DNA from: Nannocystis bainbridge
GTDB lineage: Bacteria > Myxococcota_A > Polyangia > Nannocystales > Nannocystaceae
DNA length: 64,000 nucleotides
Assembly: GCF_028368995.1 (NCBI RefSeq)
Contig: NZ_JAQNDL010000001.1
Coordinates: 2,400,001-2,464,000 of the forward strand
Direction: 5' to 3'
The position numbers were made by a program, and so were the translations under genes. Positions 14,453 through 57,608 of this stretch are shown one piece after another. The stretch's first letter is position 1; each line of letters begins with the position of its first letter. The notes under the pieces are model-generated. The model ran no database searches and was not told the DNA's origin. It saw nothing but the letters and a program-made list of their open reading frames with translations.

Positions 14453-16153
14453 ATGCTGCGGGCCGCCGTGCCGCCCGCCCCGCCGCATCCTGGCCCGTCT
14501 GGAGCCCGATCCGCCGGGGCAGCGGGGCCGCTCGAAGCCGCTTCGAACATGCCCCTCGGGACAGGTCCTGAGGGCCAGGCAGGACCGTCCGGGGCGACTT
14601 CCTCACCCATGTCCCTCGGGACAGGTCCCGGAGGACAGGCCGGTCCGCCCGCGAACATGTCCCTCAGAGCAGGTCCTCGAGGACAGGCCGGTTCGGCCTC
14701 GTCTTCCAACCTGTCTTTCAGGGCAGGTCCAAGAGAGTCGAGGCTCGCCCCTTCCGCCTCGGCCTCCAACATGTCTCTCGGGGCAGGTTCCAGCGCTCGC
14801 GCCCCGCGCCCGCCCGACCTGCTCGCCCCGCACCTGCCGCGCGAGACCGAGCCCGCGGGGCCGCCCGACCTGCTCGCCCCGCACCTGCCGCCGGTGACCC
14901 GCCAGCTGAGCCTGCGCCCGCCCGACCTGCTGCCGCCGGGCGCCGGTCCCGGGCCCGTGCCGCCGGCCGCCCCGCTGTCGGCGCAGTGCCCGGCCTGCAG
15001 CCTGCACGCGCTGGTCGCGGTCCACCTGCGCCGGGCCGCGGGCGGGCGCTGGCGGCAGCTCGGCGCCCGCGAGCGACCTGTCCCCGAGGACCTGACCCTC
15101 GATACATGTCCGGTGTGCTTCGGGGTGTGGCTCGACCACGGCGAGCTCGACCAGCTCGGCGACGCCGAGGTCGACCCTGCCTTCCTCAAGACCGTGGTCG
15201 GTCGCTCGGCCGGCCGCATGTGCCCGCGCGGCCACGGCTTCATGAACGAGCACCTGCTCCCGGGCATGCTCCGGACCCCCGTCGACCGCTGCCCGCGCTG
15301 CCGCGGGATCTGGCTCGACGGCGACGAGCGCCACGCCCTCGCCCGCTCGACCACCCCGTCCGGCCAGGAGGACCCCAAGGTCCTGCTGGCCAAGCGCGGC
15401 GTCCAGTGGGCCGCCCAGGTCCTGACCCAGCTGCCGATCGAGGTCGACAACCCGCGGCGAGGGATCCCCTGGGTCGTGCTCGGCCTCGGCGCCCTGCTGC
15501 TCGGCTGCTACGTCGCCTCGGTGCTCGGCCTCGTCTACGCCCGCGAGTACGCGCTGGTGGCCGGCAAGGTGCTCGCCGAGCCGGCGCGCATCTACACCGT
15601 CCTCACGCACACGCTGTTCCACGCCGACTGGTTCCACCTGCTGTTCAACCTCTACTTCCTGTACGTGTTCGGCAGGAACGTCGAGCACGTGTTCGGCCGC
15701 CGGCGCTTCCTCATCCTGTACTTCGGGGCAGGTGTGTTCGGCGGGCTGCTGCAGCTGGTCCTGACCCGCGCCACCGGCACGCCGGTGATCGGCGCCTCGG
15801 GGGCGATCGCCGGGGTGTGCGGCGCCTACCTGGTGACCTTCCCGCGCGCGCGGCTGCTGCATACGCTGCCGCTCGTGTACGTGCCGCTGAAGATCCCGGC
15901 GTGGATCTACCTCGGGGCGTGGATCGGCTTCCAGGCGGCGATGGCGGCCCTGTCCGACGCGCAGGAGTTCGCGTGGTCCTCCCACCTCGGCGGCTTCGCG
16001 CTCGGGGCCGCGCTCGCGCTGCCGGTGCTGCGCAGCGTCCGGCGCGAGGTCGGCGAGGCGGTGCGGGTCAAGTCGGCGGCGGCGATCTTCGGCAAGGTGC
16101 CGCGCCGGCGCGGGCCGCCGATCGTGGTCCAGCCGGTCCGGAGGTCGCCGTGA
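14453..16153 (+). CDS. Rhomboid intramembrane serine protease with TFIIB-type Zn-ribbon domains and a repeat-derived N-terminal extension
   Basis: CPAC..CPVCFGVWLDHGEL and CPRG..CPRCRGIWLD Zn ribbons; rhomboid motifs HADWFHLLFN, GASGA and HLGG. The true start is uncertain. Confidence 0.85.
   Translation: MLRAAVPPAPPHPGPSGARSAGAAGPLEAASNMPLGTGPEGQAGPSGATSSPMSLGTGPGGQAGPPANMSLRAGPRGQAGSASSSNLSFRAGPRESRLAPSASASNMSLGAGSSARAPRPPDLLAPHLPRETEPAGPPDLLAPHLPPVTRQLSLRPPDLLPPGAGPGPVPPAAPLSAQCPACSLHALVAVHLRRAAGGRWRQLGARERPVPEDLTLDTCPVCFGVWLDHGELDQLGDAEVDPAFLKTVVGRSAGRMCPRGHGFMNEHLLPGMLRTPVDRCPRCRGIWLDGDERHALARSTTPSGQEDPKVLLAKRGVQWAAQVLTQLPIEVDNPRRGIPWVVLGLGALLLGCYVASVLGLVYAREYALVAGKVLAEPARIYTVLTHTLFHADWFHLLFNLYFLYVFGRNVEHVFGRRRFLILYFGAGVFGGLLQLVLTRATGTPVIGASGAIAGVCGAYLVTFPRARLLHTLPLVYVPLKIPAWIYLGAWIGFQAAMAALSDAQEFAWSSHLGGFALGAALALPVLRSVRREVGEAVRVKSAAAIFGKVPRRRGPPIVVQPVRRSP
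14545..14792. repeat. Five degenerate copies of a 48-60 bp unit made of 14-bp-phased CATG/CAGG decamers, encoding (N/P)MSLG(T/A)GP.GQAG
   Basis: Cores at 14548/14562/14576, 14608/14622/14636, 14656/14670/14684, 14710/14724 and 14770/14784. Confidence 0.85.
14810..14937 (+). repeat. Direct repeat CCGCCCGACCTGCTCGCCCCGCACCTGCCG (PPDLLAPHLP) x2 plus a partial third copy
   Basis: Copies start at 14810, 14861 and 14918 (partial). Confidence 0.85.
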
Positions 16154-19299: not shown

Positions 19300-19472
19300 G
19301 CCGGCGGAACACTGTCATGCGCCCGCGAGGTCGGCGAGCGACATGTCCCCTGTGACATGTCCAAAGAGTCATGAACTCTCGCGGCGCCCGTGTCTCGCCT
19401 GGAGCCGGCGCCGGCCCGCTTCTGGCGCTCCGGCCCAACCCGTGCGACCCTGCCACCGTGAACAATAGACTT

Positions 19473-21218
19473 ATGTGGAAGCGGACCTCGATCCTCGCGG
19501 CCGCTGCCGGTGCCGCCCTCACCTTCGCGCACGCGCGCCCGGCCGACGCTTGCGGGGTCAACGGCTGCGACGGCGGCGTGCCCGGGCCGATGCCGGTCAA
19601 CCAGGACGGCGAGAACGTGCTGTTCGTCCTCAACCCCGGCGAGGTCGAGGTCCACATCCAGATCAGCATCGACCCTGACACCAACGCGCAGAAGTTCGCC
19701 TGGCTGATCCCGATCGCCCAGATCCCCGAGTTCGAGGTCGGCTCGCAGCCGCTGTTCGACGCGCTCCTGCAGGCCTCCGTGCCGCAGTACGGCCTGACCC
19801 AGACCTTCGAGCAGTGCGGCGAGGAGGGCATCTCGGCCGGCCTCACCTCGCCGAACGGCGGCGGCACCGACAGCGGCGGCGGCTCCACTGGCGACGCCGC
19901 GACCACCGGGGCGACCGGCGGCGACCCGGTGCTGCTCAAGACCACCGCCGGCGCGTTCGAGATCGTCGTCCTGCAGGACAAGACCGTCGCGCCGATCAAA
20001 GAGTGGCTGCTCGACAACGATTTCCTGTGGATCGACGGCGCCGACGAGACCTTCCAGCAGTACCTCGACGCCGGCCAGGTGATCGTCGCGCTCAAGCTGA
20101 CCGGCGGGGCCGACGAGGGTGACGTGCACCCGATCGTGCTGCGCTACCCGTCCGACGAGAACTGCTTTCCGCTGCGGCTGACCCGCTTCTCGTCGGTCCA
20201 GGACATGGACATCCGCGTGTTCCTGCTGGCCAACGGCCGCGCCGCGCCGACCAACTACCGCCACGTCCTCGTCAACCCGCTCAAGATCGACTGGCTCAAC
20301 TTCGCCGCCAACTACAAAGAAGTCATCGGCAAGGCGGTCGACGAGCTCGAGGCCGACGGCCTGGCCTTCGTCACCGAGTACGCGGGCGCCACCAGCATCA
20401 CCGCGCCGTTCGCCTTCAACGTCTACAGCCCCAACTGGAACGAGGCGCCGTTCGCCGGCCTCGCGCCCGAGCAGGTCATCGAGCGCCTCAACGAGCAGGG
20501 CCTGACGAACTGCTACGAGCCGGGCTTCTGCTTCTACAACCACCCGCTGGTCGAGGGCCTGCTGCGCGAGTACCTGCCGGCCCCGGACGGCCTGTCCGAC
20601 GAGGAGTTCTACGGCGGCCTGGCCAGCTACGTCGACCAGATCGACGCGATGAAGTGGGGCGACGGCAGCGGCTTCGCCACCGGCCTGGCCGAACGCATCA
20701 TCACCCCCGGCCTGCACGCACAGGACCTGCTCGACACCTTCCCGTACCTCACCCGCATGTACACCGTCATCTCGCCGAACGAGATGATCGCGGACCCGAC
20801 CTTCCACATCAACCCGGACCTCGAAGACGTCGACAACGTCCGCGTCGCCACCAACTACAACCTGTGCGACGGCAACAGCGTCGTCACCCTCCCGGACGAG
20901 CGCGAGATCTTCGTGCCCGACGCCGGCCCGTGGCCCGAATTCATCGGCGAGATGTTCTGGGCCGAGGAGATCAGCCAGATCGCCCTCAAGGGCAAGCCGA
21001 TGCACCTCGTCAACAACACCGCCGCGATCAACACCAAGATCGAGGCGTGGAACACCCGCCACGGCTGGCCTCGCAACGCCGCCTCCGGCACCGCCGGCAA
21101 CGACGGCGGCGGCGAGTCCGGCTGCGGCTGCGCCAGCGACCCGGCGCCCAACGGCGCGGCCCTGCTCGGGCTTACGGGGCTCGGCCTGCTGGCGCTGCGC
21201 CGGCGCCGGCGGGCGTGA
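19473..21218 (+). CDS. DUF2330-like secreted protein with MYXO-CTERM sorting signal
   Basis: Signal ..ADAC, FAWLIPI, FPLRL and LTRMYT.ISP.EM..DP.F motifs; C-terminal GCGC...LGLLALRRRRRA. Confidence 0.8.
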   Translation: MWKRTSILAAAAGAALTFAHARPADACGVNGCDGGVPGPMPVNQDGENVLFVLNPGEVEVHIQISIDPDTNAQKFAWLIPIAQIPEFEVGSQPLFDALLQASVPQYGLTQTFEQCGEEGISAGLTSPNGGGTDSGGGSTGDAATTGATGGDPVLLKTTAGAFEIVVLQDKTVAPIKEWLLDNDFLWIDGADETFQQYLDAGQVIVALKLTGGADEGDVHPIVLRYPSDENCFPLRLTRFSSVQDMDIRVFLLANGRAAPTNYRHVLVNPLKIDWLNFAANYKEVIGKAVDELEADGLAFVTEYAGATSITAPFAFNVYSPNWNEAPFAGLAPEQVIERLNEQGLTNCYEPGFCFYNHPLVEGLLREYLPAPDGLSDEEFYGGLASYVDQIDAMKWGDGSGFATGLAERIITPGLHAQDLLDTFPYLTRMYTVISPNEMIADPTFHINPDLEDVDNVRVATNYNLCDGNSVVTLPDEREIFVPDAGPWPEFIGEMFWAEEISQIALKGKPMHLVNNTAAINTKIEAWNTRHGWPRNAASGTAGNDGGGESGCGCASDPAPNGAALLGLTGLGLLALRRRRRA

Positions 21219-21239
21219 AGCTCCGGGGGTGTCCGATCG

Positions 21240-21556
21240 GGCATGTCTGAAGGGACATGCTCGTTCGAGCATGTCCTTCGGCGCGATGCTCGGACGCACA
21301 TGTCCCTTCGGGCATGCCTGAAGCGACATGTCGCTTCGGGCATGCCAATCGCTGGCATTCACGAAGAAAATTGTCCAACGGGCATGCCCGGAGCGACATG
21401 CCCCTTCAGGCATGCCCCTCGATGGCATTCAGCAAGAGACTTGTGCAACGGGCATGCCTGGAGAGACGCGCCTGTTCGGGCATGTCCCTCGATGGCATTC
21501 ACGAAGAGACTTGTCGGACGGGCACGCCTGAAGCGACATGCCCCTTCGGGCATGCC
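21240..21556. repeat. Intergenic tandem array with a 70-bp unit (36-bp palindrome plus conserved 34-bp linker), REP/BIME-like
   Basis: GGCATGCC-TGAAGCGACATGTCGCTTCG-GGCATGCC-type palindromes start at 21311, 21381, 21451 and 21521 (exact 70-bp period), with a degenerate copy at about 21241; lies between convergent genes. Confidence 0.92.
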
Positions 21557-21571
21557 GCTCGTCTCGGGGCC

Positions 21572-22255
21572 TCACGGCTGCGCCGGTTGGGCGCCGCCGG
21601 CGGGGGCCGCCTGCACGGCGCCTGCGGGTCCGGGCGCGGGCGCGGGCGCCTCGGCGATCGCGGGCGTCACCGGCGCGGCCGGGGGCGCGGCGACCTGGGT
21701 CGGCGGGGCCGAGGGCACCACCGCCGGCGGGGTGGCGACCACCACCGGCGCGACCGGGGCCGCGTTCACCTGCGGCACGGCCGGCAGCGGGCGCGCCGTG
21801 GTCGAGGCCGCGCCGCCCATGACGCCGTCGTAATGCCCGAGATAGCTCCACTCGGGGTCGAACAGCATCGTCGCCACCACGAACTCGCCGGTCTTGGGCC
21901 GCACGCGGATCTCGAACGCGTGCCCGTCCTTGGCCGCGCGATCGGCGACGGTCAGCGGGTCGGGCTGGGCGTCCTTGTCGAGGTCGATGTGGCTGAACTG
22001 CCCCGGCTGCTTGTTCAGCGCCTCCTGCAGCTTGTCGGCCGTCTTCAGGCGGTTGAAGCTCACGAGCATCGACACCGGCTCGACCGCGAGGTCGGCGGAC
22101 AGCGGGCGATCGACGCCGGTCGGCGCCGGGGCCCCGGCCATCGACGCCCGGGTGAAGGTGGCGTCCTCGTCTCCGGATGGGTCGACCGGCTTGCCGCACG
22201 CGACGGCGAGGACGGCGAGGACCAGGGCTGCGCTCCGAGCTGTACTTTCGAACAT
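21572..22255 (-). CDS. Hypothetical lipoprotein with Pro/Ala-rich tail
   Basis: GGAGG RBS, lipobox LAVAC and a DLDKDAQPD Ca-binding-like loop. Confidence 0.75.
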   Translation of the reverse strand: MFESTARSAALVLAVLAVACGKPVDPSGDEDATFTRASMAGAPAPTGVDRPLSADLAVEPVSMLVSFNRLKTADKLQEALNKQPGQFSHIDLDKDAQPDPLTVADRAAKDGHAFEIRVRPKTGEFVVATMLFDPEWSYLGHYDGVMGGAASTTARPLPAVPQVNAAPVAPVVVATPPAVVPSAPPTQVAAPPAAPVTPAIAEAPAPAPGPAGAVQAAPAGGAQPAQP

Positions 22256-22424
22256 GTTGCCTCCGCGAGGGCTCACGCCCCGAGAGCGAGGAGAGCGCGG
22301 CCCGGACGGCGCCGCGGGGCCGGTCGCACGGCGAGGGGCCCGCCCGGCAGTATAACGAGGCCGCGACCGCACGGCAGCCGGCGCGCACGCGACCCGGTAA
22401 ACGGCCTATACTGCCGCGGCCGCC

Positions 22425-24668: not shown

Positions 24669-26083
24669 TTGCCGGGCTTCTCCTCGGCGTCGGCCATGAT
24701 CTTGTCATAGACCTGGCCGCGCGGCGTGCCCTCGTCGACCAGCTTCTGCGCCTTGGCCTTCTCCTCCTCGATGAGGGTCTTGAAGCCTTCGTAGGGCTGG
24801 GCGCCGGACAGGAAGCGGCCGTTGACGAAGAACGACGGGGTGCCGCCGCTCTTCAGCCGGTTGGCCACCGCCTCGTCGTCCTTGACCATCTGCTCGGTCT
24901 CGGCGGCGGCGAGGTCGAGCTCGAACATCGCCACGTCGAGGCCGAGCTCCTGGGCGTGCTTCTTGACTGTCTCTTCGGACATGTCCGAAGGGCTCTGGAA
25001 CAGGCGGTCGTGCATCTCCCACGCCTTGCCCTGGCGGTGGGCCGCCAGCATCGCCCGGGCGCCGACGCGCGCCTGCGGGTGCATCGCCAGCGGGCGCTGA
25101 CGGAACACGATGCGCACGTCATTGGGGTAGTTCTGCTTGACGTCGGCCAGGGCCGCGTTGACGCGCTTGCAGAACGGGCACTGGAAATCGCTGAACTCGA
25201 CGATCGTGACGAGCGCGTCGTCGGGACCGAACTGCGGGCGGGCGTCGAGCGGCACGCGGTAGGTCTTGCTCGGATCGGGGCCGTCGTCGCGCTGGCTCGG
25301 GGCCTTGCCGGGCCCGCCGCCGCCGCGCTGGGCCTTGGCGTCCTTCATCATCGCGCCGTAGACCTCGGCGCGCGCGGTGCCCTGGCTCTCGAGCTGGCGG
25401 GCCTGCTCGCGCTCGTACTCGAAGATCTCGCGCCACTGCTTGGCCGGCAGCGAGCCCGAGTAGGGGCGGCCGTTGACCAGGAAGTACGGCGTACCGGTCG
25501 CGCCGGCCTTGCCGCCGGACACGTAGTCGCTGTCGATCGCGGCCTTGGCGGCGTCGCTGGTGCGGTCGGCGTTGAACTTGGCGAGGTCGAGGCCGAGCTG
25601 CTGCGCGTGGGCCTCGAAGGTCTTGTCGTCGAGCTTCTTCTGGTTGCCGAACAGGAGGTCGTGCATCTCCCAGAACTTGCCCTGCTGGTGCGCAGCCCAC
25701 GCCGCCTGCGACGCGGGCGGCGCCAGGTTGTGGCCCGGCAGCGGGTAGTGCTTGAAGATCAGGCGCACGTCGCCCTCGTAGGTGCCCATCGCGTCCTTCA
25801 GCGGGTCGGTGACCTTGGCGCAGAACGGGCACTGGAAGTCGGAGTACTCGATCACGGTGACGAGCGCGTCGTTCGGGCCCAGCTGCGGCTCGTCGCCGCG
25901 CAGATCGGCGCGGTAGCGGTCGCCCTGCTCGAGCTTGGCCGAGGGCACGAAGAAGCGGTCGCGGACCCACTGCCCGGCGTAGAAGCCGACCCCGATGGTC
26001 GCCGCGAACCCGAGGACCGCGACCAGGATCGAGGTGGTGGATCGCTTGTTGGGGGTGGGTGCAGGCGTCGTGGCGTCGGACAT
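24665..26083 (-). CDS. DsbA-like protein with two thioredoxin domains
   Basis: TM anchor; two SDFQCPFC motifs, each with GTPxFxVNGR cis-Pro loop. Confidence 0.9.
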   Translation of the reverse strand: MSDATTPAPTPNKRSTTSILVAVLGFAATIGVGFYAGQWVRDRFFVPSAKLEQGDRYRADLRGDEPQLGPNDALVTVIEYSDFQCPFCAKVTDPLKDAMGTYEGDVRLIFKHYPLPGHNLAPPASQAAWAAHQQGKFWEMHDLLFGNQKKLDDKTFEAHAQQLGLDLAKFNADRTSDAAKAAIDSDYVSGGKAGATGTPYFLVNGRPYSGSLPAKQWREIFEYEREQARQLESQGTARAEVYGAMMKDAKAQRGGGGPGKAPSQRDDGPDPSKTYRVPLDARPQFGPDDALVTIVEFSDFQCPFCKRVNAALADVKQNYPNDVRIVFRQRPLAMHPQARVGARAMLAAHRQGKAWEMHDRLFQSPSDMSEETVKKHAQELGLDVAMFELDLAAAETEQMVKDDEAVANRLKSGGTPSFFVNGRFLSGAQPYEGFKTLIEEEKAKAQKLVDEGTPRGQVYDKIMADAEEKPGK

Positions 26084-28312: not shown

Positions 28313-28393
28313 GGGGCTCTGTGTCTGTAGTTTGCTGGGTGGTTGAAAGAACATGTCACAAAAACCATGTCCAAAAGGACATGTGGGGAGTCG

Positions 28394-29830
28394 TCACTGG
28401 TGGAGATCGGCGCTCGGGAACTGGTTGGGAGGGATCGCCTCCGCTTCCAGGATCGTGCGCACGACGGTCTCGCGGGCGGCGCCGGCGGCGATCCGCTCCT
28501 GGGCGTGCGCGAGCTCGGTCGCGACGTCGGCGGCGAGCGCCTCGGCGCCGCGAAAGCCGTCGACATAGCGACCGTTGAGGAAGATCGCCGGGGTGGCGTC
28601 GAGCCCGAGCCTGCGGGCGTATACGAGGTCGTCGCGGACGACCTGGGCGACCTCGGCGCTGTCGAGGTCGGCGAGGAAGCGGGCCTCGTCGAGGCCGAGC
28701 TCGCGGGCGATCGCCGCGTAGGTGCGGCGGCCGAGCCGGGGCGCGGTGAACAGCTTGTCGGCGAAGTCCCAGAAGCGGTTCTGGCGGTCGGCGGCGACCA
28801 CCGCCCGGGCGGCGCTGTCGGCCCCGGGGTGGATCGGCAGCGGCAGCTGGCGGTAGGCGATCCGGACGTCGTCCGGATAGCGCCGCCGCAGCTCGGCGAT
28901 GCCCTCGGTCGCGGCCTTGCGACAATACGGGCACTCGAAGTCCATGAACGCGACCAGCAGCACCGGCGCGTCGGCGGGCCCGAGCGTCGGCGCGACGCCG
29001 GCGTCGACGGCATAGCGCTTGCCCGCCTCGGCCCGCTGCGGAGGCGGCGCCTCGGCGGCCTTGAACCGCTCGGCGAGCAGCCGCCGCTGCTGCGCCGTGG
29101 CGTCGTCGACCGCCAGCGGAGCGGTCACCGCCGCGTCCATGACGGCGCCATAGAGGTCGGCGCGGGCGGTGCCCTCGCGCAGGCGCGCCTGGGCGGCGAC
29201 GATCTCCTCGTCGATCAGCGCGTGCCAGGCCGCCTCGTCGCGGAAGCCGATCAGCGGCCGGCCGTTCACCAGCGCCACCGGGCTGAAGTAAATCCCGAGC
29301 TCCACCGCCTGGCGGCGATGGCGGATCCGCGTGCCCGAATAGACCCCCGCGTCGAGGTCGTCGAGGAAGCGCGGCACGTCGAGCCCGAGCGCCTCGGCGT
29401 CCGCCTTGAGCGCCGCGCGGTCGAACTTCAGCGTGTCGTAGAGCCGGCGGTGCATCGGCCAGAACTGGCCCTGCGCCCCGGCGGCCAGCGCGGCCTCGGC
29501 GGCCCGCTCGCCGTCGGCGAAGCCGGGCAAGGTCTGGCTGCGGAACACCACCCGCAAGTCGTCGCCGTAGTCCTCGACCAGGTGATCGAGGACCTTCCAC
29601 GTGCGCGCGCACGGCGGGCAGGCGTAGTCGGAGAAGACGACGATCGTGACGAGCGGCTCGGCGCCGCCGAGCGCGTGCTCGTCAGGGTCGAGGTCGACGC
29701 GGTAGCGCTGCGACGGCGCGGCGACCGGCGCGGCGGATGATTCAGGAGCGCTCGGGGAGCACTCGCAGGCTGCGTTGCTCAGCGCCAGGCCGAAGGCGAC
29801 CTGACCGAGCCAGAGATGTGGGACACGCAT
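28394..29830 (-). CDS. DsbA-like protein with two divergent thioredoxin domains
   Basis: SDYACPPC and MDFECPYC active sites; FSPVALVNGR and ATPAIFLNGR loops. Confidence 0.87.
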   Translation of the reverse strand: MRVPHLWLGQVAFGLALSNAACECSPSAPESSAAPVAAPSQRYRVDLDPDEHALGGAEPLVTIVVFSDYACPPCARTWKVLDHLVEDYGDDLRVVFRSQTLPGFADGERAAEAALAAGAQGQFWPMHRRLYDTLKFDRAALKADAEALGLDVPRFLDDLDAGVYSGTRIRHRRQAVELGIYFSPVALVNGRPLIGFRDEAAWHALIDEEIVAAQARLREGTARADLYGAVMDAAVTAPLAVDDATAQQRRLLAERFKAAEAPPPQRAEAGKRYAVDAGVAPTLGPADAPVLLVAFMDFECPYCRKAATEGIAELRRRYPDDVRIAYRQLPLPIHPGADSAARAVVAADRQNRFWDFADKLFTAPRLGRRTYAAIARELGLDEARFLADLDSAEVAQVVRDDLVYARRLGLDATPAIFLNGRYVDGFRGAEALAADVATELAHAQERIAAGAARETVVRTILEAEAIPPNQFPSADLHQ

Positions 29831-30673: not shown

Positions 30674-30746
<73 letters not shown>

Positions 30747-31057: not shown

Positions 31058-31130
31058 TCCGACATAGCTCAGTCGGTAGAGCAGCGGACTGTTAATCCGC
31101 GGGTCGTAGGTTCGAGTCCTACTGTCGGAG
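31058..31130 (+). tRNA. tRNA-Asn(GTT), CCA not encoded
   Basis: TCCGACATAGCTCAGTCGGTAGAGCAGCGGACTGTTAATCCGCGGGTCGTAGGTTCGAGTCCTACTGTCGGAG; anticodon GTT. Confidence 0.97.
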
Positions 31131-34554: not shown

Positions 34555-35334
34555 ATGCCCACCACGCCCGTCCTGTTCGTCGGCCACGGTTCACCGATGA
34601 ACGTCATCCTCGACAATGCCTGGACGCGGTCGTTCAAGGATCTCGGAGCGGCGTTGCCGACGCCGCGGGCCATCCTCGCCATCTCGGCGCACTGGTACAC
34701 GCGCGGCACCTTCGTGACCGCCGGCGGCGACCCGCCGACGATCCACGACTTCGGCAATTTCCCCCGCCGGCTGTTCGAGATCCAGTACCCGGCCCGCGGC
34801 CACGACGAGCTCGCGCGCCGGGTCTGCGAGCTGCTGGTCGGCGACAAGGCCGCGCCGCGCAGCGACTGGGGCCTCGATCACGGGACCTGGTCCGTCCTGC
34901 ACCACATGTACCCGCGCGCCGACGTGCCGGTGGTGCAGCTCAGCATCGACCACCGGCGGCCGCCGGCCGAGCACCTGGCGATCGGTCGCGCGCTCGCGCC
35001 CCTGCGCGAGGAGGGCGTCCTGATCCTCGCCAGCGGCAACATCACGCACAACCTGCGCGCCGCCATGCAGTGGGCGCAGAGCGGCGACGGCACGCAGCAG
35101 GAGTGGGCCCTGCAATTCGACGCCGACGTGGCCCGGGCGGTCGAGCAGCATGACCACGAGTTCCTCGCCCGCGCCCCCGAGAGCCCGCTCGGGCGCCAGA
35201 ACCACCCGAGCCTCGACCACTACTTGCCGCTGCTCTACGCCGTCGGGGCCGCGCACGAGACCGAGGCCCCGCGGTTCTTCAACCCCGGCTTCGACCTCGG
35301 CTCGATCTCGATGCGCGGCGCCGTGTTCGGCTAG
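34555..35334 (+). CDS. ygiD: 4,5-DOPA extradiol dioxygenase (LigB/YgiD family)
   Basis: LFVGHGSPMN, ISAHW, TIHDFG, WGLDHGTW, ASGNITHNL and HP..DHYLPL motifs. Confidence 0.92.
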   Translation: MPTTPVLFVGHGSPMNVILDNAWTRSFKDLGAALPTPRAILAISAHWYTRGTFVTAGGDPPTIHDFGNFPRRLFEIQYPARGHDELARRVCELLVGDKAAPRSDWGLDHGTWSVLHHMYPRADVPVVQLSIDHRRPPAEHLAIGRALAPLREEGVLILASGNITHNLRAAMQWAQSGDGTQQEWALQFDADVARAVEQHDHEFLARAPESPLGRQNHPSLDHYLPLLYAVGAAHETEAPRFFNPGFDLGSISMRGAVFG

Positions 35335-37277
35335 TCGACCCGCGCCACCTCGAGGCAGGCCGCCCGCGCGCGCTCGCGGCTGACCACGCGCTCGCGGATC
35401 GACGCCTCCACCATCGCCGCGATCCGGGTCCGCTGGGCTGGGTCGCGCGGCAGCGGCAGCACCAGCTCGCCGACGCGGTCGCCGAGCGAGTCGATGATGT
35501 CCTGCGTGAACCGCTTGGCCTCGATCTGCTTGCGCACCGGCTCCGAGCCGAGCATCGCCAGCAGCAGGTACGGCGACAGCAGCTCGGGCCGGCGCACGCG
35601 CAGCTTCAGCAGGTGGCTCTGGAACACGATGCGCGTGTCGTGCTCGGTGATGAACGCACACGTGCCGATCAGGTACGTGCCGTCGCGGACCATCAGGATG
35701 TCGCCCGCGCGCACGTCCTGCTTGGCGCGCAGCGACTCGTAGACCGCCTCGCCGACGCAGTGCTTGGGGTCGAGCTTGAGCTCCCAGTTGGAGAGATCGG
35801 AGGTGCGCACGAACGGCACGTCGCCGCCGCCGTACGCCAGCTTGCCGACCTCGTGCCCGCTGGTGATGCCGAGGATCCCGTCGTCGATCAGCTGCTGAAT
35901 CGACACCAGCTCGTGCGTGCGCTGCAGCCGGGCCAGGGTGGCCGCGACCCGCGGGTCGTAGTAGCGCGGGGCCAGCACGTTGCCGCGCACGGCCTCGGGC
36001 GCGACCGCGTGGCCGAGGCGGCTGGCCGCGGGCGGGCTGCCGGCCTCGTGCTGGCGGAACCGGTCGCCGATCTCCGGCAGCTCGTCGCGGGCGATGCTGC
36101 GGCCGCGGCTGTCCTTGCCGCACCACGCCGCCTCGGCCATGAAGATCGCCGGCCGCTCGCTCGCCGGCGCCGGCTCGCGGCGGGTCAGCAGCACCAGGCA
36201 CACCTTGGTGTGCGTGCCGCCCTTGCCCGACGTCTTGAACAGCTCCTCGGGCATGCCGATGACCGCCCGCAGATCTGCCTGTTCGAACATGTACTGAACG
36301 ACATGTCGATACGACTTGCCGGAGATCAGGCTCTCGGGCAGCACCAGGCCGACGCGGCCGCCGGGGCGGGCCAGCGCCAGCAGACGCTCGACGAACAGCA
36401 CCTGCGGCGAGACCCCGCGCTGCAGCCGGGGCGTGCGCTCCCAGCGATCGTCGGCGCCGCGCCGCCACGCGTGGCCGAGCGCGAACGTCTGCTGGACCTC
36501 GGTCGACGCCGCCACGATCTTGGCCCCGAACGGCGGGTTGGCGAGCACGACGTCGAACCCGCGCTGCTCGCACGCGATAGGTCCGCCGTCTTCGCCCTGC
36601 CAGGCCAGCGTGTCGCCGCAGTAGACCCGCGCCGGCGCCATCGTCACCAGCCCGACGTGCGCGCGCGCCAGCCCGGCCAGGTAGCGGTCCTTGTCGATCC
36701 CGACCACGCTGCGCGCCACCTCGGCCGGCGCGCCGCCGCGGGCCACCAGCCGCCGCGCCGTGTGGCTGAGGAACCCGCCGGCGCCGCAGGCCGGGTCGAT
36801 CACCCGCTCGCCGGGGCGCGGATCGACCAGGTCGACCAGCATGCGCACCGCCGTCTGCGGGGTGAAGAACTGGCCCTCGACCCCGCGCGTCGCCGACGCG
36901 GTGAACACCTCGTAGGCGTCGCCGATCGGGTCGCAGCGCGGGTCGTCGAGGTCGAGCCCGCGCAGCTCGCGGTCGACCTCGTGCAGCGTCGCCGCGTCGA
37001 GCCCGATCTGCGCGTCGGCGGCGAACACCTCGGGCATGAGCGCCTGCAGCCGCGCGAGCTGGGCCCGGTAGAACCCCAGCAGCGCGCCCGCCTCGCCCGG
37101 CGCCGCGTCGCCGCTGCGGACCGTCAGCGTCCGGCAGAACACGCAGCGCAGCACCTCGTCGAGCAGCGCCGCGTCGCGGGTCGCGCCGACCAACCGGCCG
37201 GCCAGGAAGTTGCGCAGCCGGCCGAACATGGCCCTGGTCTCAGGGACCTGCGTCGAAGGACATGTCTCTTCAAACAT
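35331..37277 (-). CDS. N6-adenine DNA methyltransferase (HsdM-like) fused to one HsdS-like target-recognition domain; no restriction subunit nearby
   Basis: GQFFTP, DPACGAGGF (SAM binding) and NPPF (catalytic); C-terminal VPFVRTSDL...GDILM.RDGT..IG...LVLPLP is TRD-like; start at 37277 or 37229. Confidence 0.85.
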   Translation of the reverse strand: MFEETCPSTQVPETRAMFGRLRNFLAGRLVGATRDAALLDEVLRCVFCRTLTVRSGDAAPGEAGALLGFYRAQLARLQALMPEVFAADAQIGLDAATLHEVDRELRGLDLDDPRCDPIGDAYEVFTASATRGVEGQFFTPQTAVRMLVDLVDPRPGERVIDPACGAGGFLSHTARRLVARGGAPAEVARSVVGIDKDRYLAGLARAHVGLVTMAPARVYCGDTLAWQGEDGGPIACEQRGFDVVLANPPFGAKIVAASTEVQQTFALGHAWRRGADDRWERTPRLQRGVSPQVLFVERLLALARPGGRVGLVLPESLISGKSYRHVVQYMFEQADLRAVIGMPEELFKTSGKGGTHTKVCLVLLTRREPAPASERPAIFMAEAAWCGKDSRGRSIARDELPEIGDRFRQHEAGSPPAASRLGHAVAPEAVRGNVLAPRYYDPRVAATLARLQRTHELVSIQQLIDDGILGITSGHEVGKLAYGGGDVPFVRTSDLSNWELKLDPKHCVGEAVYESLRAKQDVRAGDILMVRDGTYLIGTCAFITEHDTRIVFQSHLLKLRVRRPELLSPYLLLAMLGSEPVRKQIEAKRFTQDIIDSLGDRVGELVLPLPRDPAQRTRIAAMVEASIRERVVSRERARAACLEVARVD

Positions 37278-37445
37278 GTGCTTTCAGTCATCCCCGCCGC
37301 AGCAGCTCGAACCCGACCTCGCGCCCCTGCCCGCCGAGGAGCCGGCGGCGACCAGGCGGCGGGCGATGGCAGAATCGTGCGACGACATGGCGCGCAGCCT
37401 ACCGCGAAAGCATCGGCCGCGCGAGTCCCGCAGCCGGGCCCGAAC

Positions 37446-38285
37446 CTACTGACAGGTCAGCGGCGCGCCGTCGAAGACCGTCATGGTGCAGGTCGAGTCG
37501 GCCGCGCAGCCGCAGATCCCCGCGTAACAGGTGTCCACATTCTGTCCGCCCGCGCAGTCGCTGTCGACCGCGCAGCCGCAGCGGCCGGCCACGCACTGCA
37601 CATACCCGGGCAGCCCCGAATCGACGCAGTCCTGATCGATCTGGCACACGCACGCGCCCGACGGCACGTCGCACGCCGGGTGCCCCGTCTGCGGCACGCA
37701 GCCCTCGTCGCCCGTGCACGGGCTCTGGCACGCCCCCGCCTCGCAGCTGGCCGCCGCCTGCCCGCACACCAGCACCTCGCGCTCGCCCGCGAACAGCGGC
37801 AACATCTGCTCGACCAGCCCGAAATCGGCGCACGCGAAGGTGCCCGGGGTCAGCGCGCAGCGGCCCGCGTCGGCCACCAGCACGCACGCCTCCTCGGGCG
37901 CGCACTCGCCCGGGCCCGCGCACGGCGTCTTCCACCCCGACAGCTCGGCCAGGCACTGCGCGTCGCTGGTGCACGGCGGGAACAGGCACAGCCCGTCGAT
38001 GCAGCGGAACCCGAGGTCGCTGCCGCCGATCCGGCAGTCACGATCGCTCTCGCACTGCGACTGGCAGCGCTTGGCCTCGGGCCCCGCAGTGGTCGGCTCG
38101 CCCGTGCTGCCGGTCGTCGTCGCGCTCGTCGTCGAAGTGCTCGTCGCCGGCTCGCCGGTGGTCGGCGTCGCCGTCGACGACGACGTGGTCTGCGGCTCGC
38201 TGGCCGTCCCGGCGCCTGTCGGCGGGCACGCGGACAGGAGCCCCGCCGCGAGCCCCAGAGTTCGGATCTTGCCAGTCAACACCAT
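37446..38285 (-). CDS. Cys-rich lipoprotein with a Thr/Ser linker and repeated C-x-x-D-x-D-C modules
   Basis: Lipobox LSAC, Thr-rich spacer, and modules CESDRDC, CTSDAQC, CTGDEGC, CQIDQDC, CAVDSDC and CAADSTC. Confidence 0.8.
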   Translation of the reverse strand: MVLTGKIRTLGLAAGLLSACPPTGAGTASEPQTTSSSTATPTTGEPATSTSTTSATTTGSTGEPTTAGPEAKRCQSQCESDRDCRIGGSDLGFRCIDGLCLFPPCTSDAQCLAELSGWKTPCAGPGECAPEEACVLVADAGRCALTPGTFACADFGLVEQMLPLFAGEREVLVCGQAAASCEAGACQSPCTGDEGCVPQTGHPACDVPSGACVCQIDQDCVDSGLPGYVQCVAGRCGCAVDSDCAGGQNVDTCYAGICGCAADSTCTMTVFDGAPLTCQ

Positions 38286-38367
38286 GCTGCGCGACGGTAG
38301 CGCATTTTCGCCCGTGGGCGAAGAATCCCGCGCATGCGGACCGCGAGAAGTGGCACCATCGGCCGCG

Positions 38368-39015
38368 ATGGAGCGCGGTGGCCAGGTCTCGTGCCCGCAG
38401 TGCGGGGCTCCGGCCCCGTTTCGCGGCACGGCCGTCTCGCTGGTGTGCGAGCACTGCGGCAGCACCGTCGTCCGCACCGGCGTCGACGTGCGCCTGCTCG
38501 GCCGCGTCTCCTCCGTGATCGACGACGGCAGCCCGCTGCTGCTCGGCGGCAAGGGCAGCTTCGCCGGCCGCGGCTTCGAGATCGTCGGCCGCCTGCAGCT
38601 CCGCTACGCCCGCGGCGCCTGGAGCGAGTGGTACCTGCAGTTCGCCGACGGCGTCGGCTGGCTGGCCGACTTCCAGGGCAACTTCGCCATCACCGTGCCC
38701 GCCGCCGGCGCCGATTTCCCTGGCTTTTACGACATGTCCGTGGGGACATGGCATGAAGTACATGGCGCGAAGTACATGCTCGTCGACCGCCGGGCCGCCC
38801 GCTACCAGGGCGCCGAGGGCTGCCTGCCGTTCGTCGCCGAGCCCGGCCTGACCTTCTTCGCCCTCGACCTCGCCGGCCCCGACGATCAGTTCGTCAGCCT
38901 CGACTACGGCGTCGACCCCCACAACAAGCGCCCCGCCGTTTACCTCGGCCGCGCCGTCCTGCTGGCCGAGCTCGGGCTCGACCGCCTGCGCCGCTTCGAG
39001 GGCTGGCATGACTGA
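38368..39015 (+). CDS. DUF4178 protein with N-terminal Zn ribbon
   Basis: CPQCGA..CEHCGS, G.WSEWYL and GAEG.LPF motifs. Confidence 0.8.
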   Translation: MERGGQVSCPQCGAPAPFRGTAVSLVCEHCGSTVVRTGVDVRLLGRVSSVIDDGSPLLLGGKGSFAGRGFEIVGRLQLRYARGAWSEWYLQFADGVGWLADFQGNFAITVPAAGADFPGFYDMSVGTWHEVHGAKYMLVDRRAARYQGAEGCLPFVAEPGLTFFALDLAGPDDQFVSLDYGVDPHNKRPAVYLGRAVLLAELGLDRLRRFEGWHD

Positions 39016-40393: not shown

Positions 40394-40493
40394 GCCGCTC
40401 TCGCGCCGCCCGCATCATCCACTGACTCTTCGGACATGTCTTATCGAACATGACCTCTCCGACATGCCCTGATCGCCCTCCCCTGCCCTGACC

Positions 40494-42219: not shown

Positions 42220-42391
42220 GCGCTCGGGACATGTCCTTCCGTTGCTGTCGCATGGGACATGTCCTTTATGACATGCGATCGCGGCCGCGGCGTCGCAAGT
42301 GCGCCACTACCCTGCTCGTTCGTACATGTCCCCGGAGACAGACGACCGGCCCGCGCGCTCCCGTCTCCTCGCGTCGCCCCGGGGCCCGCGC

Positions 42392-44023: not shown

Positions 44024-44548
44024 CTCTTCGGACATGTCCATGAGGGCATGTCCGAAAGCCCACCCTGCACGTGACCATTTTAACCCTCGCCTTCGGGCGT
44101 GGGCCGTCGCGGCGCAGGCGGCCGCGGAGCTGACGTTTTGGTCGGCGACAAGCAGCGGCGTCCTCTCCGAGTTCCGGACCGCAAGCCAGGCTCTCACGCG
44201 CGCTGGCCCTTCAGACCCACCGCCGGTCGGCGCTCCCGCCGAAGCGCGTCATCCCGGCGGAGCTCCGCGCCAGCCGCCCGCCTCTCGGCTTCGTGCCACC
44301 GCCGCGGTCGAGCCGAGCTCCCATGTCTCTTCGGACATCCCCGCGATCGCCTCGCCGCGCTGCCGCCCGCCCGCTCTGCGAAACTATTTTGAGAAAAACA
44401 TGTCCCGAGGGACATGTTCTGCGCCGGGACCGCTGCCCTGGGCACAAACGGCCGCAGCGCGCGCCCCCCGTCCGCGTCTGTCGATCCCGACAGCTCCTGA
44501 GCGGTCTTGCCCGTCCCTGCGCGCCCGCGGCCGCGCTATCCTCCTCGT

Positions 44549-45130
44549 GTGCCGCTGTCGCTCGCGCAGCTCGAGGCGCTCTCGCAACAGGCCTTCCCGA
44601 CCCAGGCCGTCGCGCGGCGTGACCCTGATGGTTACGCCGCCCTCCACGCCGCGATCGCCGAGGCTATCCTTCCGGTCGCGCGCGCGCTCGAGTTCGACAT
44701 GGACGACTTCGTCGCTCGCAGTCAGGACGAGCTGCTCGCCCTCCCGCCGCACATCCTGTTCGTGTGGTGCGACGAGGCCGACCTCATGGCCTCGTTCTAC
44801 GCCCTGCCCGAGGCCGACATCGCCGCCAACGTCGCCCAGGCCCTGCACGCCGTCGCCGGCCTGCGCTTCGGCGACCCCGCCCAGCTGCCCTCCGAGCAGC
44901 GCGGCGCGGTCCTCCGGATCATGGCCGCGATCGGCACTCCGCTGGCCCGCGACGCCGACGACTTCTTCGCCGCCTACGTCGACGGCGCCGCCCACGACCC
45001 CGAGCTCCCGGTCCGCGCCGAGGTCGAGGCCCTGTTCGACCAGTTCGCCCCCTGCTTCGTGCCCGACGCCGACGGCCTCGATCGCCGCTTCACCCGCGTG
45101 ATCGCCGTCCACCGCCACATCGACGCCTAG
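44549..45130 (+). CDS. Hypothetical protein
   Basis: Acidic globular ORF with strong GC3 bias; GTG start inferred. Confidence 0.65.
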   Translation: MPLSLAQLEALSQQAFPTQAVARRDPDGYAALHAAIAEAILPVARALEFDMDDFVARSQDELLALPPHILFVWCDEADLMASFYALPEADIAANVAQALHAVAGLRFGDPAQLPSEQRGAVLRIMAAIGTPLARDADDFFAAYVDGAAHDPELPVRAEVEALFDQFAPCFVPDADGLDRRFTRVIAVHRHIDA

Positions 45131-45242
45131 CATGTCTCCGAGGACATTTTTCTAGGGGCATGTCCCAAAGGACAGCCAGGATCGATCATCGGACTGCCGG
45201 CGCCAGCACCCCACCTGCACTTCGGGCCAGGTGGAGCTCCGC

Positions 45243-47497: not shown

Positions 47498-50400
47498 TCA
47501 CTTTTGGGCGCGCGTCAGCGGCCATGTCGCACACACGCGCAACCCGACCGTACTATGCCGAAAACTCGTAGGGATCTCGAAGCGGTTGGAGACTCGCCCG
47601 GCGAATTCATTATAGTAGAACCCACCGCCGCGCGCATTCAATTGCTTGTGGTCGTACGGCGACACCGTGAATTCGTAGGCGTTGCCGATCGTGTCATAGA
47701 GGCCGTAGGGGCTCACCGATTGGGGATACGAGCCCACCGGGTCGGGGCCGAACGCCGATCCCAGCAGGCCGTACGTCCTGTCGATATTGGCCTCGCTGGC
47801 CTCGAGGCGCTGGCCGATGGAGAATCGTCGGTCGTCGGCGCCGCGGGCTGCACGCTCCCATTCGTGTTCATCACAGAAACGGGCGCCTGGGACTCGCCCC
47901 GAGGAATCGAGCCACGCGAAATACGCTATCGCCTCCTCGACCCCGATTCCCGTCACTGGCAGACGTTCCCATTCGACGCGGGCCCGCTGCGTCCTGCCCT
48001 CGTAGACCAGGGGCTCGCCGGTCCGCGCGGTGTACACACGCTCCGTCTGATGCAGCTCGAGCTGCCAGCCGCCCTGGGCCAGCTCGGTGAGGCGGGCGCT
48101 GTCGGACAGCACCCGCGCGGCGTTGATCGCCAGGATCGCCGCGCGTTCGCCGGGCGGCAGCGCCGACAGGAACTCGATGTAGTCGGCCCACGTCACCTCA
48201 TGCCGACCGATGACGTAGGCCCCGGTCTGCACGCTGTGCAGCGGCTCGGCGCTCATCGACACGCGCAGGTCGACGATGTCGCCGGTGCCGTACAGGAAGC
48301 GGCCGGCGGGCACGTAGACGAAGCCCGCGGGGATGGTGTCGGTCGGCGGGAGCACGACCGAGAAGTCGGCGACCTCCTCGCGCGCCAGCGCGATCGGCAG
48401 GGTCACCGGCGCGTAGCCCTCGAGCTCGAAGCGCAGGCGATACGACCCACGATCGAGCGGACGCGCCGGCACCGGCGTGACCCCCAGCGTCTCGGTCGCG
48501 TCGATGCGGGCCCGCGACGCGTCGTAGCGCTCGAGCTGGACCCGCGCCCCCGGCGGCTCGCTCGTCACCGAGAACTGGGCCGGCGCGTTCCACCGCCCGA
48601 TCCGCGCCCCGTCCTCGTCGTAGAGCTTCAGGCGCTCGAGCAGGTCCTGGATCACGAACTCGCCGTGACCCGCCTGTTCGGCCAGCAGCGCGCGCTCGAG
48701 CAGCACCTCGCCGAGGCGGTCGCGGACATCGTCGCGCCGGCCGTCGAGGCTCAGCGCCGTCTCGAGCTTCTGCGCCGAGCGGGCCAGCCGCAGCTCCGCC
48801 TCCGGCAGCGTCGCCTCGTAGCGGGTCCACAGCCCGTCGGCGTGGGTCTGCTTGCCGGCGTCGTAGGCCGCCAGCGCTTGCGTCCGCAGCGCCTCGGCGT
48901 CGGCCCGCGCCTTGCCGGCGACCGCCCGCTCCTGCTCGGCCGCGGTCACCTGCGCGTCGACCTTGAGCCGCAGGTCGCGCTGGCCCTTGAGCCACATCGC
49001 CGCGTACATCGAGATCGCGACCGCCGGCACCAGCACGATCGCCCCGCGTCGCAGCGCCCGCACCCGCGCCGCCGCCGTCTTGCACGCGGCGATGAAGTCG
49101 CGCTCCTTCGGCCGCAGCGACGCCGGGTCGAGCGCCACCACCTCTTGCAGCGGCGCCCCGCTCCACAGCGCGTCGCGGCCGCGGCCGAGCCGCTCCCACT
49201 CGGTGACCGCGAGCTCGAGCCGGTGCCGCACCGCCCGGCCGTCGCGCTCCTCCTCGAGCCAGGTGCTGAGCGTCGACCACCCGCCGAGCAGCGCCTCGTG
49301 GGCGATCTCGAAGACCGCGTCGTCGTTGACCTCGCGGGCCACCACCAGGCGCCCGCGCACCAAAGCCTTGAGCGCCTCGGCGGCCGCGGGCGAGTCGGAG
49401 GTCAGCTCGTCTTCGGTCCGCACCGCGCGGGTGTCGTCGACCGTCACGAGGCGCATCAAGATCCGCCGCGCCGCCGCGCGCTGGGCCGGGATCAGCTCGG
49501 CGAGCACCGCGTCGCCGTGCCGCGCCAGCGCCCCGGTCACGCCGCCGACTTTGCGCAGGTCGGCCGGCGAGATGATGTTGGTCGCCTGGTCGCGCAGCTC
49601 CCACAGCTCGGCCAGCGCGAACTGCAGCAGCGGCAGGCTGCCGCGCGCGCCGGCCTCGACCAGCTCGTCGACCAGCGTCGACGGCTCGAAGCGCACGCCC
49701 TTGACCTTGGCCGGGCCGACGATCGCCTCGCGCGCGCCCTCGGGCGACAGCGGCCGGAGGATGTAGATCGCCCGCGACAGCTCGTCGCCGATGCCCGGCA
49801 CCTGGACCACGCGCGTCAAGAAATCGCCGCGCACCGTCGCCATCACCCGCAGCCCCGGCAACCCGGATGCCAGACGCGCCAGCAGCGGGCCGACCACCGC
49901 GACCTCCTGCGTCGCGCTCAGCGTCACCAGCTCCTCGAACTGATCGATCACCAGCAGCCGCCCGCGCGCCTCGCCGAGCTGCTTGCGCAGCGACCGGACC
50001 AGCTCGCCCGGGCTCTCGGCGATCAGCGCGGAGAGTGTCTCTTCGGACATGTCGAAGAGGACAGCCAGCGTCGACACCAGCGTCTGCAGCGGGTAGCGGC
50101 CCGGGGTCATCGCCGCCGAGGCCCACTGGCGGTGGTGGTCGAGGTTGCCCTCCTCGACCATCGGCACCACGCCGGCCTTGACGAGCGACGACTTGCCGAC
50201 GCCCGAGTCGCCGGCGACGACCACCAGCGCGTCGGCGCGGAGGCGCTCGAGCACGGCGCGGATCTCGACGCCGCGGCCGAAGAACACCGCGCGGTGCTTC
50301 GACTCGAACGCCTGCAGGCCGCGGTACGGGTTGCCCTCGGGGATCACCAGCTCGCGGCCGCTCGGCTGCAGCGACTCGAGCGCGGCCAACAGATCGTCGG

Positions 50401-54276: not shown

Positions 54277-55266
<990 letters not shown>

Positions 55267-55304
55267 CCTTTCCGACCTGTCCTCAAGCACCTGGTCTTTC
55301 CGCC

Positions 55305-56297
55305 ATGACCGTTCGACCCGCTCACTCCGCGCCGCACCGCCAGGACCCGCTGTCGGGCCTGTACCCGCCGATCGACCCGTTCCACTTCGGCCGGCTGCAG
55401 GTCCCGGGCGGGCACGACCTCTACTTCGAGCAGTCGGGCAACCGCGCCGGCAAGCCGGTGGTGTTCCTGCACGGCGGGCCCGGCGGCGGCACCGACCCCA
55501 AGCACCGGCGCTTCTTCGACCCGGCGCGCTACCGCATCATCCTGTTCGACCAGCGCGGCTGCGGCCAGAGCGAGCCGTTCGCCTCGCTCGAGGACAACAC
55601 CACCTGGGACCTGGTCGACGACATCGAGCGCCTGCGCGAGCACCTCGGCGTCGACCGCTGGCAGGTGTTCGGCGGCTCGTGGGGCAGCACGCTCGGGGTC
55701 GCCTACGCCGAGGCCCACCCGCACCGCGTCACCGAGCTGGTCCTGCGCGGGATCTTCATGTTCACCCGCCGCGAGTCCGATTGGTTCTACGGCCGCGGCA
55801 CCCGCAACCTGTTCCCCGACGCCTGGGAGGCCTTCGTCGCCCCGATCCCCGAGGCCGAGCGCGCCGACCTGATCGCCGCCTACTACCGCCGCCTCACCTC
55901 GAACGACCCGCGCGTCCGCGTCGAGGCCGCGCGCGCGTGGAGCCTGTGGGAGAGCCGCGTCGCCGCCCTGCACCCCGACCCCGACGTCGAGATGCACTGC
56001 GACAACACCGACTTCACCCTCGCCTTCTCGCGCATCGAGTGCCACTACTTCGTCAACAAGGGTTTTCTGAACAGCGAGACCCAGCTGCTGGACGACGCGC
56101 CGAAGATCCAGCACATCCCGACGACGATCGTGCACGGCCGCTACGACGTGATCTGCCCGCTCGAGAACGCGTGGCACCTGCACAAGCGGCTGCCCCGCTC
56201 GGAGCTGGTGATCGTGCCCGACGCCGGCCACTCGGCCTTCGAGCCCGGCATCGCCCTCAGCCTGCGTCGCGCCACCGACCGCTACTCCCAGCTGTGA
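55305..56297 (+). CDS. pip: Prolyl aminopeptidase, copy 2
   Basis: Same motif set ([25 protein letters not shown]); start MTVRP. Confidence 0.93.
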   Translation: MTVRPAHSAPHRQDPLSGLYPPIDPFHFGRLQVPGGHDLYFEQSGNRAGKPVVFLHGGPGGGTDPKHRRFFDPARYRIILFDQRGCGQSEPFASLEDNTTWDLVDDIERLREHLGVDRWQVFGGSWGSTLGVAYAEAHPHRVTELVLRGIFMFTRRESDWFYGRGTRNLFPDAWEAFVAPIPEAERADLIAAYYRRLTSNDPRVRVEAARAWSLWESRVAALHPDPDVEMHCDNTDFTLAFSRIECHYFVNKGFLNSETQLLDDAPKIQHIPTTIVHGRYDVICPLENAWHLHKRLPRSELVIVPDAGHSAFEPGIALSLRRATDRYSQL

Positions 56298-56319
56298 GGC
56301 CGGGCCGGGGCGGTGCGTC

Positions 56320-57606: not shown

Positions 57607-57608
57607 CC

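Follow-up and report, generated by a model that had tools for sequence, protein, structure and literature searches.

REPs have been proposed, in the accessible part of bioRxiv 10.64898/2026.03.23.713779, to act as read-through attenuators or partial terminators and as stabilizers of mRNA. In Escherichia coli and its relatives, the REP/BIME elements are short extragenic palindromes at the 3' ends of genes, in operons, and between convergent genes, where they are often clustered in tandem with alternating orientation. DNA uptake sequences of Neisseria are short, genus-specific, protein-read motifs that likewise lie at gene ends, and inverted pairs of them in terminators form hairpins; they differ from the elements described below in that they are not themselves palindromic and are not known to form phased multiunit arrays. 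Among conserved 8-bp palindromes that extend across a lineage, the closest parallel is HIP1 of cyanobacteria (GCGATCGC), which has known cognate methyltransferases. In the accessible portions of PMC5861425 and PMC4390886, HIP1 is over-represented, its function is unsettled, and it is scattered within and between ORFs with a 10- to 90-kb periodicity, rather than being described as phased gene-end arrays.

Here, we describe an array of palindromes in Nannocystis bainbridge and the dispersed family to which it belongs. The analyzed stretch of DNA, 64,000 nucleotides long, is referred to as the window. The array (21237 to 21559, about 320 bases) consists of 23 units of 14 bp, most of them with the core GRCATGYC, and it fills the 353-bp spacer separating two convergent genes. 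It comprises one older five-unit block and a 70-bp repeat of five units that is present about 3.6 times. The parts of the locus are as follows.

19371 to 21218, plus strand: upstream convergent gene, encoding a DUF2330 protein with a MYXO-CTERM sorting tail.
21237 to 21307, unstranded: older five-unit block, 71 bp including a 1-bp insertion, with cores GGCATGTC, GACATGCT, AGCATGTC, one decayed core, and CACATGTC.
21309 to 21378, unstranded: 70-bp copy 1, the A-B-A palindrome at 21311 to 21346 plus a linker with two decayed units.
21379 to 21448, unstranded: 70-bp copy 2, the palindrome at 21381 to 21416 plus the linker.
21449 to 21518, unstranded: 70-bp copy 3, the palindrome at 21451 to 21486 plus the linker, with the middle core changed from CATG to CGCG.
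21519 to 21561, unstranded: partial copy 4, the palindrome at 21521 to 21556 only, with the first core changed to CACG.
21572 to 22372, minus strand: downstream convergent gene, encoding a predicted lipoprotein with no family match; its true start is likely near 22255.

The four 36-bp palindromes start where the original prediction had placed them (21311, 21381, 21451, and 21521), and the arms of the first are 94% complementary, with zero gap between them. We resolved the 70-mer into five 14-bp units of a dispersed element, as had been proposed: unit A (GGCATGCC), unit B (GACATGYC), unit A again, and then two decayed units, GGCATTCA and GACTTGTC, which recur in each linker. The spacing through the linker is 15+14+13 = 42 bp, and thus the 14-bp register is kept. 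All 14 CATG sites of the intergenic spacer (21242, 21256, 21270, 21299, 21313, 21327, 21341, 21383, 21397, 21411, 21453, 21481, 21537, and 21551) share one 14-bp lattice, which is offset by 1 bp at a single place, near 21284 to 21298. The near-identical linkers and convergent flanking genes noted earlier are both present: the 70-mers are 79 to 88% identical to each other, intervals included, and the genes are on the plus and minus strands.

Tandem Repeats Finder reported a period of 70 with 3.6 copies at 21309 to 21561 (80% matches, 0% indels, score 338) and, nested upstream, a period of 28 at 21270 to 21346 and a period of 14 at 21230 to 21276. The repeat search returned a 113-nt repeat present three times in the array (spacing 70/70, identity 81 to 82%) and a five-copy family from 21238 with spacings of 71, 70, 70, and 70. 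The period of 70 is 5 × 14, a multiunit block repeated head to tail, which makes the array a higher-order tandem repeat and upholds the suggestion of satellite-like tandem amplification. As in satellite-type higher-order repeats, the 70-bp blocks are more alike than their units. The array differs from such repeats in having only about four copies at a single locus and in that its basic unit is a dispersed element that is under selection. Two decayed units are common to all three linker-bearing copies; thus, an already decayed five-unit array was duplicated locally. Decay continued after the duplication, from CATG to CGCG in copy 3 and from CATG to CACG in copy 4.

We found the unit of the array throughout the window. 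The spaced pair CATG-N10-CATG occurs 26 times against 0.58 expected, a count that 0 of 100 shuffles reached, and GRCATGYC occurs 36 times against 5.64 expected. The dyad TGTC-N6-GACA is present 20 times against 0.6 expected, with no occurrence at the N5 spacing and one at N7. An array finder that required cores matching at least 7 of 8 positions at a step of 14±1 identified 20 arrays in the window, compared with about 1 array per 64 kb under second-order Markov nulls. Twelve of the 20 have two units, six have three, one has four, and the remaining one is the 23-unit array. In DNA that had not been selected by the pattern (the window minus the array, plus the locus flanks), CATG-CATG distances fell at 14 for 53 pairs, at 13 for 2, and at 15 for 9, and there were further peaks at 28 and 42. 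The family unit is a core, (G)GRCATGYC(C), with about 4 free bases, repeated at an exact 14-bp step, with 2 to 7 units per array. Across the Nannocystis loci the core is conserved and the spacers between cores all differ, and the four central spacer positions are near-uniform in composition. There is about one array with at least three units per 8 to 16 kb in the DNA examined, and in the window about 1 core per 1.8 kb. The members of the family in the window, apart from the 23-unit array, include the following.

19337 to 19378, unstranded: three phased cores between the stop of a kinase gene (19299) and the start codon of the DUF2330 gene.
28347 to 28388, unstranded: three units, 8 nt past the stop of the minus-strand gene at 28394 to 29557.
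40430 to 40471, unstranded: three units, 39 nt past the stop at 40393.
42225 to 42280, unstranded: phased cores from 6 nt past the stop at 42219.
44028 to 44055, unstranded: two units directly past the stop at 44023, with more dyads at 44324, 44401, and 44479.
45126 to 45174, unstranded: three units over the TAG stop at 45128 to 45130, between convergent genes.
56318 to 56387, unstranded: five cores between convergent genes; the orthologue in N. pusilla Na p29 (L034) has five cores in the same register.
58619 to 58660, unstranded: two TGTC-N6-GACA dyads at the HIT/hemB junction.

To determine the wider distribution of the element, we scanned 185,579 species genomes for three perfect cores in register and obtained at least 89 matching stretches; the Nannocystis loci used throughout were chosen for their three perfect cores. 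Among the 89 matches listed, 68 were from Nannocystis or Nannocystaceae: N. exedens, N. pusilla, N. punicea, N. radixulma, N. sp. RBIL2, one Nannocystis metagenome-assembled genome (MAG), and one Nannocystaceae MAG. The other 21 of the matches listed were, by reading, mostly plain tandem repeats with identical 14-mers. In seven of the listed matches from outside Nannocystis, GACATGTC cores likewise recur every 14 bp with spacers that vary: L028, L031, L041, and L068, from Rhodobacteraceae/Roseovarius MAGs, and L043, L065, and L067, three mutually homologous loci from Mycobacteriaceae/Actinomycetota. These may be unrelated operator arrays.

The original prediction suggested that the 23-unit array could be a master copy of the dispersed element. 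The relationships among the arrays speak against this. Other arrays have only an 8- to 10-nt core in common with it, and its dominant core, GGCATGCC, is rare elsewhere, accounting for 23 of the 283 cores that belong to the four standard types. Neither the 34-bp linker nor the whole 70-mer has a match elsewhere in the window or in the 247 kb of Nannocystis loci, 311 kb in all. Among 200 spacers of other arrays, the commonest 6-mer occurred only 6 times. The 23-unit array is thus an ordinary family member that has been locally expanded, rather than a master copy. Its size is exceptional: the arrays of the 68 loci have 2 to 7 units, and none has 8 or more. That size most likely arose by slippage or by unequal exchange among units in register, and not for the sake of a separate function. 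Smaller local duplications are present in other arrays, for example those of L027, L032, L055, L072, and L079. Within arrays, spacers at lag 1 were identical at 5/6 positions or more in 8 of 114 pairs; the figure was 5 of 54 pairs at lag 2 and 2 of 24 pairs at lag 3, and random pairs gave 2.4%.

We then compared orthologous arrays between species. The N. pusilla Na p29 locus aligns with window positions 54399 to 58388 at 93 to 95% identity, which marks the source of the window as closely related to N. pusilla. Together with five further pairs (L042/L060, L010/L073, L015/L024, L064/L081, and L015/L085), window/L034 gave six comparisons with flanks 79 to 97% identical; they are not fully independent, as L015 was used twice. 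The CATG cores shared in register in the six comparisons were 5/5, 4/4, 5/5, 7/7-8, 3/4, and 7/7-8. The outer G and the outer C of the cores were each identical at 21 of 25 positions, the R and Y positions at 14 of 25 and 15 of 25, and the central spacer bases at 30 of 100. There were no indels within the orthologous arrays, while the surrounding spacer DNA failed to align. These alignments indicate purifying selection on the cores, on their register, and on unit number, with the spacers free to change. Such a pattern argues against a fast-turnover selfish element and against a recent copy-and-paste origin.

The arrays lie at the ends of genes. We took a census of the 82 arrays with at least three units from 60 loci of at least 3 kb and the window, using rough gene calls from our own third-position-GC (GC3) ORF caller. 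By this count, 37 arrays were in convergent spacers and 32 in co-directional spacers, compared with only 1 in a divergent spacer; of the rest, 10 fell within called ORFs and 2 at the edges of loci. In the window itself, none of the 7 divergent spacers contained a dyad or perfect core, compared with 3 of the 6 convergent spacers and 9 of the 35 co-directional ones. This is the genomic placement of REP/BIME elements, which are likewise scarce in promoter-only spacers and with which the family also shares its clustering, and to this extent the array can be called BIME-like, as was predicted. This does not make it a member of REP/BIME proper. In that family conservation would extend over the whole element of 20 to 40 nt, whereas nonorthologous Nannocystis arrays align over only about 14 to 46 nt, driven by the cores; they have an 8- to 10-nt core in common, unrelated spacers, and an exact 14-bp step.

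The position relative to the stop codon is narrow. Family arrays start about 0 to 20 nt past stop codons. In co-directional spacers, the upstream stop was at a median distance of 13.5 nt and the next start at 205.5 nt, and in 31 of the 37 convergent arrays (a count from our table) the nearer stop was at most 21 nt away. The mode of the distance from stop to first core was 7 nt, found at 13 of 75 junctions; 12 of these 13 stops were TGA, and 9 were TGACC. Thus, at this distance the stop codon serves as the first half-site of a TGYCC-N4-GGRCA dyad. On the plus-strand side of the 23-unit array, the first core of the older block is 21 nt (7+14) past the TGA stop at 21216 to 21218; at the other end, the last core of partial copy 4 ends 15 nt short of the stop codon of the minus-strand gene. 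Some convergent spacers carry two separate arrays, one per gene (L010, L011, and L047).

About a quarter of the co-directional arrays are in junctions too short for a promoter, and therefore these arrays cannot be complete terminators. Nor do the arrays look like canonical intrinsic terminators, in which a G+C-rich hairpin is followed directly by a T-tract: T made up only 16% of the 20 nt downstream of co-directional arrays, and hairpin-plus-T sites in the 16 kb around the 23-unit array were at expectation (4 sites against 4.6). Canonical promoter sites showed no enrichment around the array either. Only one of the four terminator-like sites is a family unit, 28366 to 28383 on the minus strand (CATGTCCTTTTGGACATG), which is followed by a T-rich tail and scores as terminator-like just past the stop of the gene at 28394 to 29557. 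Other candidate identities for the array were also rejected. The linker sequence TGGCAT... recalls a sigma-54 promoter, for which the rule is GG-N10-GC, and by eye it did not fit this rule. Operators with a related appearance are known for PadR (ATGT-N8-ACAT) and MrpC (GTGTC-N8-GACAC); the placement at gene ends argues against promoter operators, and the spacing of MrpC differs, so that we keep these proteins as leads only. An RNA sponge for CsrA, with GGA motifs, was dropped because the orientation of the motifs relative to the genes is inconsistent.

Solely from placement and conservation, we infer that the family probably marks the ends of transcripts and that it probably acts through hairpins, through a core-specific protein, or through both. 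We tentatively propose that the family, of which the 23-unit array is a local amplification, is a selected, orientation-independent gene-end element that would work like REP/BIME elements, and we give this reading a little less than an even chance. In the proposed mechanism, the family would be transcribed into 3' or intercistronic RNA, where neighboring palindromic cores would pair to form stacked tetraloop hairpins of 5 to 7 bp, the first of them often including the TGA stop. As the palindromic cores are identical, each core could pair with its neighbor on either strand. The hairpins would attenuate read-through and block 3'-to-5' decay, and would do so from either direction. The potential for stacked hairpins named in the original prediction was supported by our folding check, in which both strands of the array folded far better than shuffles (z = −9.8 and −10.0). 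A core-specific protein would probably also read the repeat, since conservation extends to the sequence itself and to the exact step of 14 nt, beyond what mere pairing would require.

Such a protein may read the core either on double-stranded DNA or on RNA. In co-directional arrays, the sense-strand comparison of U·G with C·A gave an initial p of 0.0095. After one member of each orthologous pair was dropped, the counts were 24 to 11 (p = 0.04), and with oriented convergent arrays added they were 32 to 21 (p = 0.17), at which point the asymmetry vanished. Watson-Crick pairs made up 63% in convergent arrays and 51% in co-directional arrays (p = 0.15). These skews are weak trends in the direction that the RNA model predicts. 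We found no covariation between Y7 of one unit and R2 of the next (odds ratio 1.58, p = 0.16), nor at positions 5 to 10, where there were 76 Watson-Crick pairs against 83.6 expected. An exact 14-bp step with a palindromic constraint would suit a dimer that binds double-stranded DNA at least as well.

A stronger form of the gene-end proposal, which we consider rather unlikely, is that Nannocystis has a dedicated sequence-specific system that marks the ends of a large share of its transcription units. A protein-bound 14-bp GRCATGYC lattice, often starting on the TGA stop itself, would then be a programmed two-way terminator or insulator. If true, the system would be neither a hairpin-plus-U terminator nor a selfish REP; it would be the bacterial equivalent of gene-end elements that are bound by a factor, and the 23-unit array would be a super-site within it.

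Part of the same evidence fits a protein lattice on double-stranded DNA for which RNA structure is irrelevant, an alternative that we regard as possible though somewhat unlikely. Here, a genus-specific dimer would sit on each core or on the TGYCC-N4-GGRCA dyad. The 14-bp step would place neighboring dimers 120 degrees apart, with every third site (42 bp, four turns) on the same face, and at gene ends the lattice would be a roadblock to transcription or an insulator, an entry site for topoisomerase, or an anchor for the nucleoid. The conserved motif is palindromic and shows no covariation, its R and Y bases flip freely between orthologues, and the strand asymmetry is not robust. The geometry points the same way: the step is exactly 14 bp, the 15+14+13 spacing of the linker preserves the 42-bp register, and orthologous arrays are free of indels even though the flanking spacer DNA cannot be aligned. 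However, the binding protein is hypothetical, and the arrays are tied tightly to the stop of the upstream gene and not to the spacer as a whole. Together with the convergent spacers that have one array for each gene, this suggests a role linked to the transcript, and the arrays in tight co-directional junctions are necessarily transcribed through. A quite different reading, and one we judge decidedly unlikely, is that the core is a palindromic genome signature comparable to HIP1 or to uptake sequences, favored genome-wide by a cognate methyltransferase, a repair bias, or DNA uptake and tolerated after stops. HIP1 is, in the accessible part of PMC5861425, likewise a conserved and hyperabundant 8-bp palindrome of unsettled function. 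In Nannocystis, GACATGTC is about 10-fold over-represented even in filtered ORFs (15 occurrences in 204.5 kb, where codon shuffles predict 1.5), ACATGT occurs 36 times in the window against 3.6 expected, cores are as frequent as noted above, and the window contains an N6-adenine methyltransferase gene (35331 to 37277). Yet most of the GACATGTC cases within ORFs are phased arrays, and several are in parts of ORFs that were probably miscalled. A strict 14-bp register with a conserved number of units would be unexpected for a signature, and the near-empty divergent spacers (1 of 82 arrays) go beyond what tolerance predicts. CATG itself is neither enriched nor avoided (240 against 184 to 194 expected), which also disposes of restriction-site avoidance.

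The two remaining explanations concern the repeats as such. A selfish REP/REPIN-type element spread by a RAYT transposase, with the 23-unit array as a BIME-like cluster of no function to the host, would account for palindromes that lie outside genes, at 3' ends and in convergent spacers, and that occur in clusters. We think this very improbable: only 8 to 10 nt are common to the copies, the most frequent 12-mers of the window and of the Nannocystis loci include none from the arrays, and orthologous sites are kept with their unit number between species. A Y1 transposase was likewise absent from the 47 proteins scanned, which for 64 kb is weak evidence. For a CRISPR array or its remnant we see next to no chance. 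A 36-bp palindromic repeat with a 34-bp interval, recurring about every 70 bp, does have the geometry of CRISPR. The intervals, however, are copies of each other and not unique spacers, as the identity of the 70-bp copies makes plain; repeat and interval both resolve into the shared 14-bp unit, which recurs at many gene ends; and a Pfam scan of 47 window proteins, in which a few short ORFs were left out, found no Cas family. The original prediction had set CRISPR aside on the same grounds, near-identical spacers and no cas genes.

We rate the family as extragenic palindromic gene-end elements, a kind already known, in a 14-bp Nannocystis form that is undescribed in the literature searched. In the openly accessible texts and abstracts that our search covered, no description of a phased 14-bp GRCATGYC element was found, and the N. 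exedens genome note (PMC5658511) does not speak of palindromes, repeats, intergenic elements, or terminators. The family follows simple rules and is conserved across the genus: the core is an 8-mer, the step is exactly 14 bp, and the position is just past the stop. To our knowledge, the ending of transcripts in very G+C-rich bacteria with large genomes is poorly understood. The family is a directly testable candidate for a gene-end signal in such a genome and a lead to the factor that would read it. The arrays might also be used as compact two-way insulators in the engineering of myxobacterial gene clusters. In annotation, the family accounts for false-positive CRISPR-like calls in Nannocystis and for ORFs that extend across spacers.

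Several other features of the window are related to the family or lie near its members. Against Rfam 15, the only matches above the gathering score in the window are two divergently oriented tRNA genes, at 30674 to 30746 (minus strand) and 31058 to 31130 (plus strand); the array itself gave only subthreshold look-alikes of microRNA hairpins and matched no known RNA family. The methyltransferase gene at 35331 to 37277 is on the minus strand, matches Pfam N6_Mtase/Eco57I, and has a subthreshold likeness to MAD2 of MADS. Over its start region, at 37256 to 37290, there are two to three phased cores, the sole array-like site of the window in a divergent spacer. Four phased cores at 38728 to 38783 lie inside a DUF4178 ORF (37714 to 39015), within its Pfam match, and use rare A/T-ending codons; they are either an in-frame insertion of the 42-bp type or a miscalled gene junction. 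Elements of two to three half-sites (TGTCTCTTCGGACATGTC...) are present in long ORFs at 24961 to 24990 (DsbA-like) and 50029 to 50062 (kinase/STAND). The 11-mer CTCTTCGGACA occurs five times in the window, compared with twice in 247 kb of other Nannocystis loci. Finally, the window contains a second higher-order array, at 14548 to 14800, downstream of the stop of a hydrolase gene at 14446. It consists of about five copies, 48 to 60 bp apart, of CATGTCC-N4-GGACAGGTCC-N4-GGACAGG, and its unit is a variant with the core ACAGGT in place of ACATGT.
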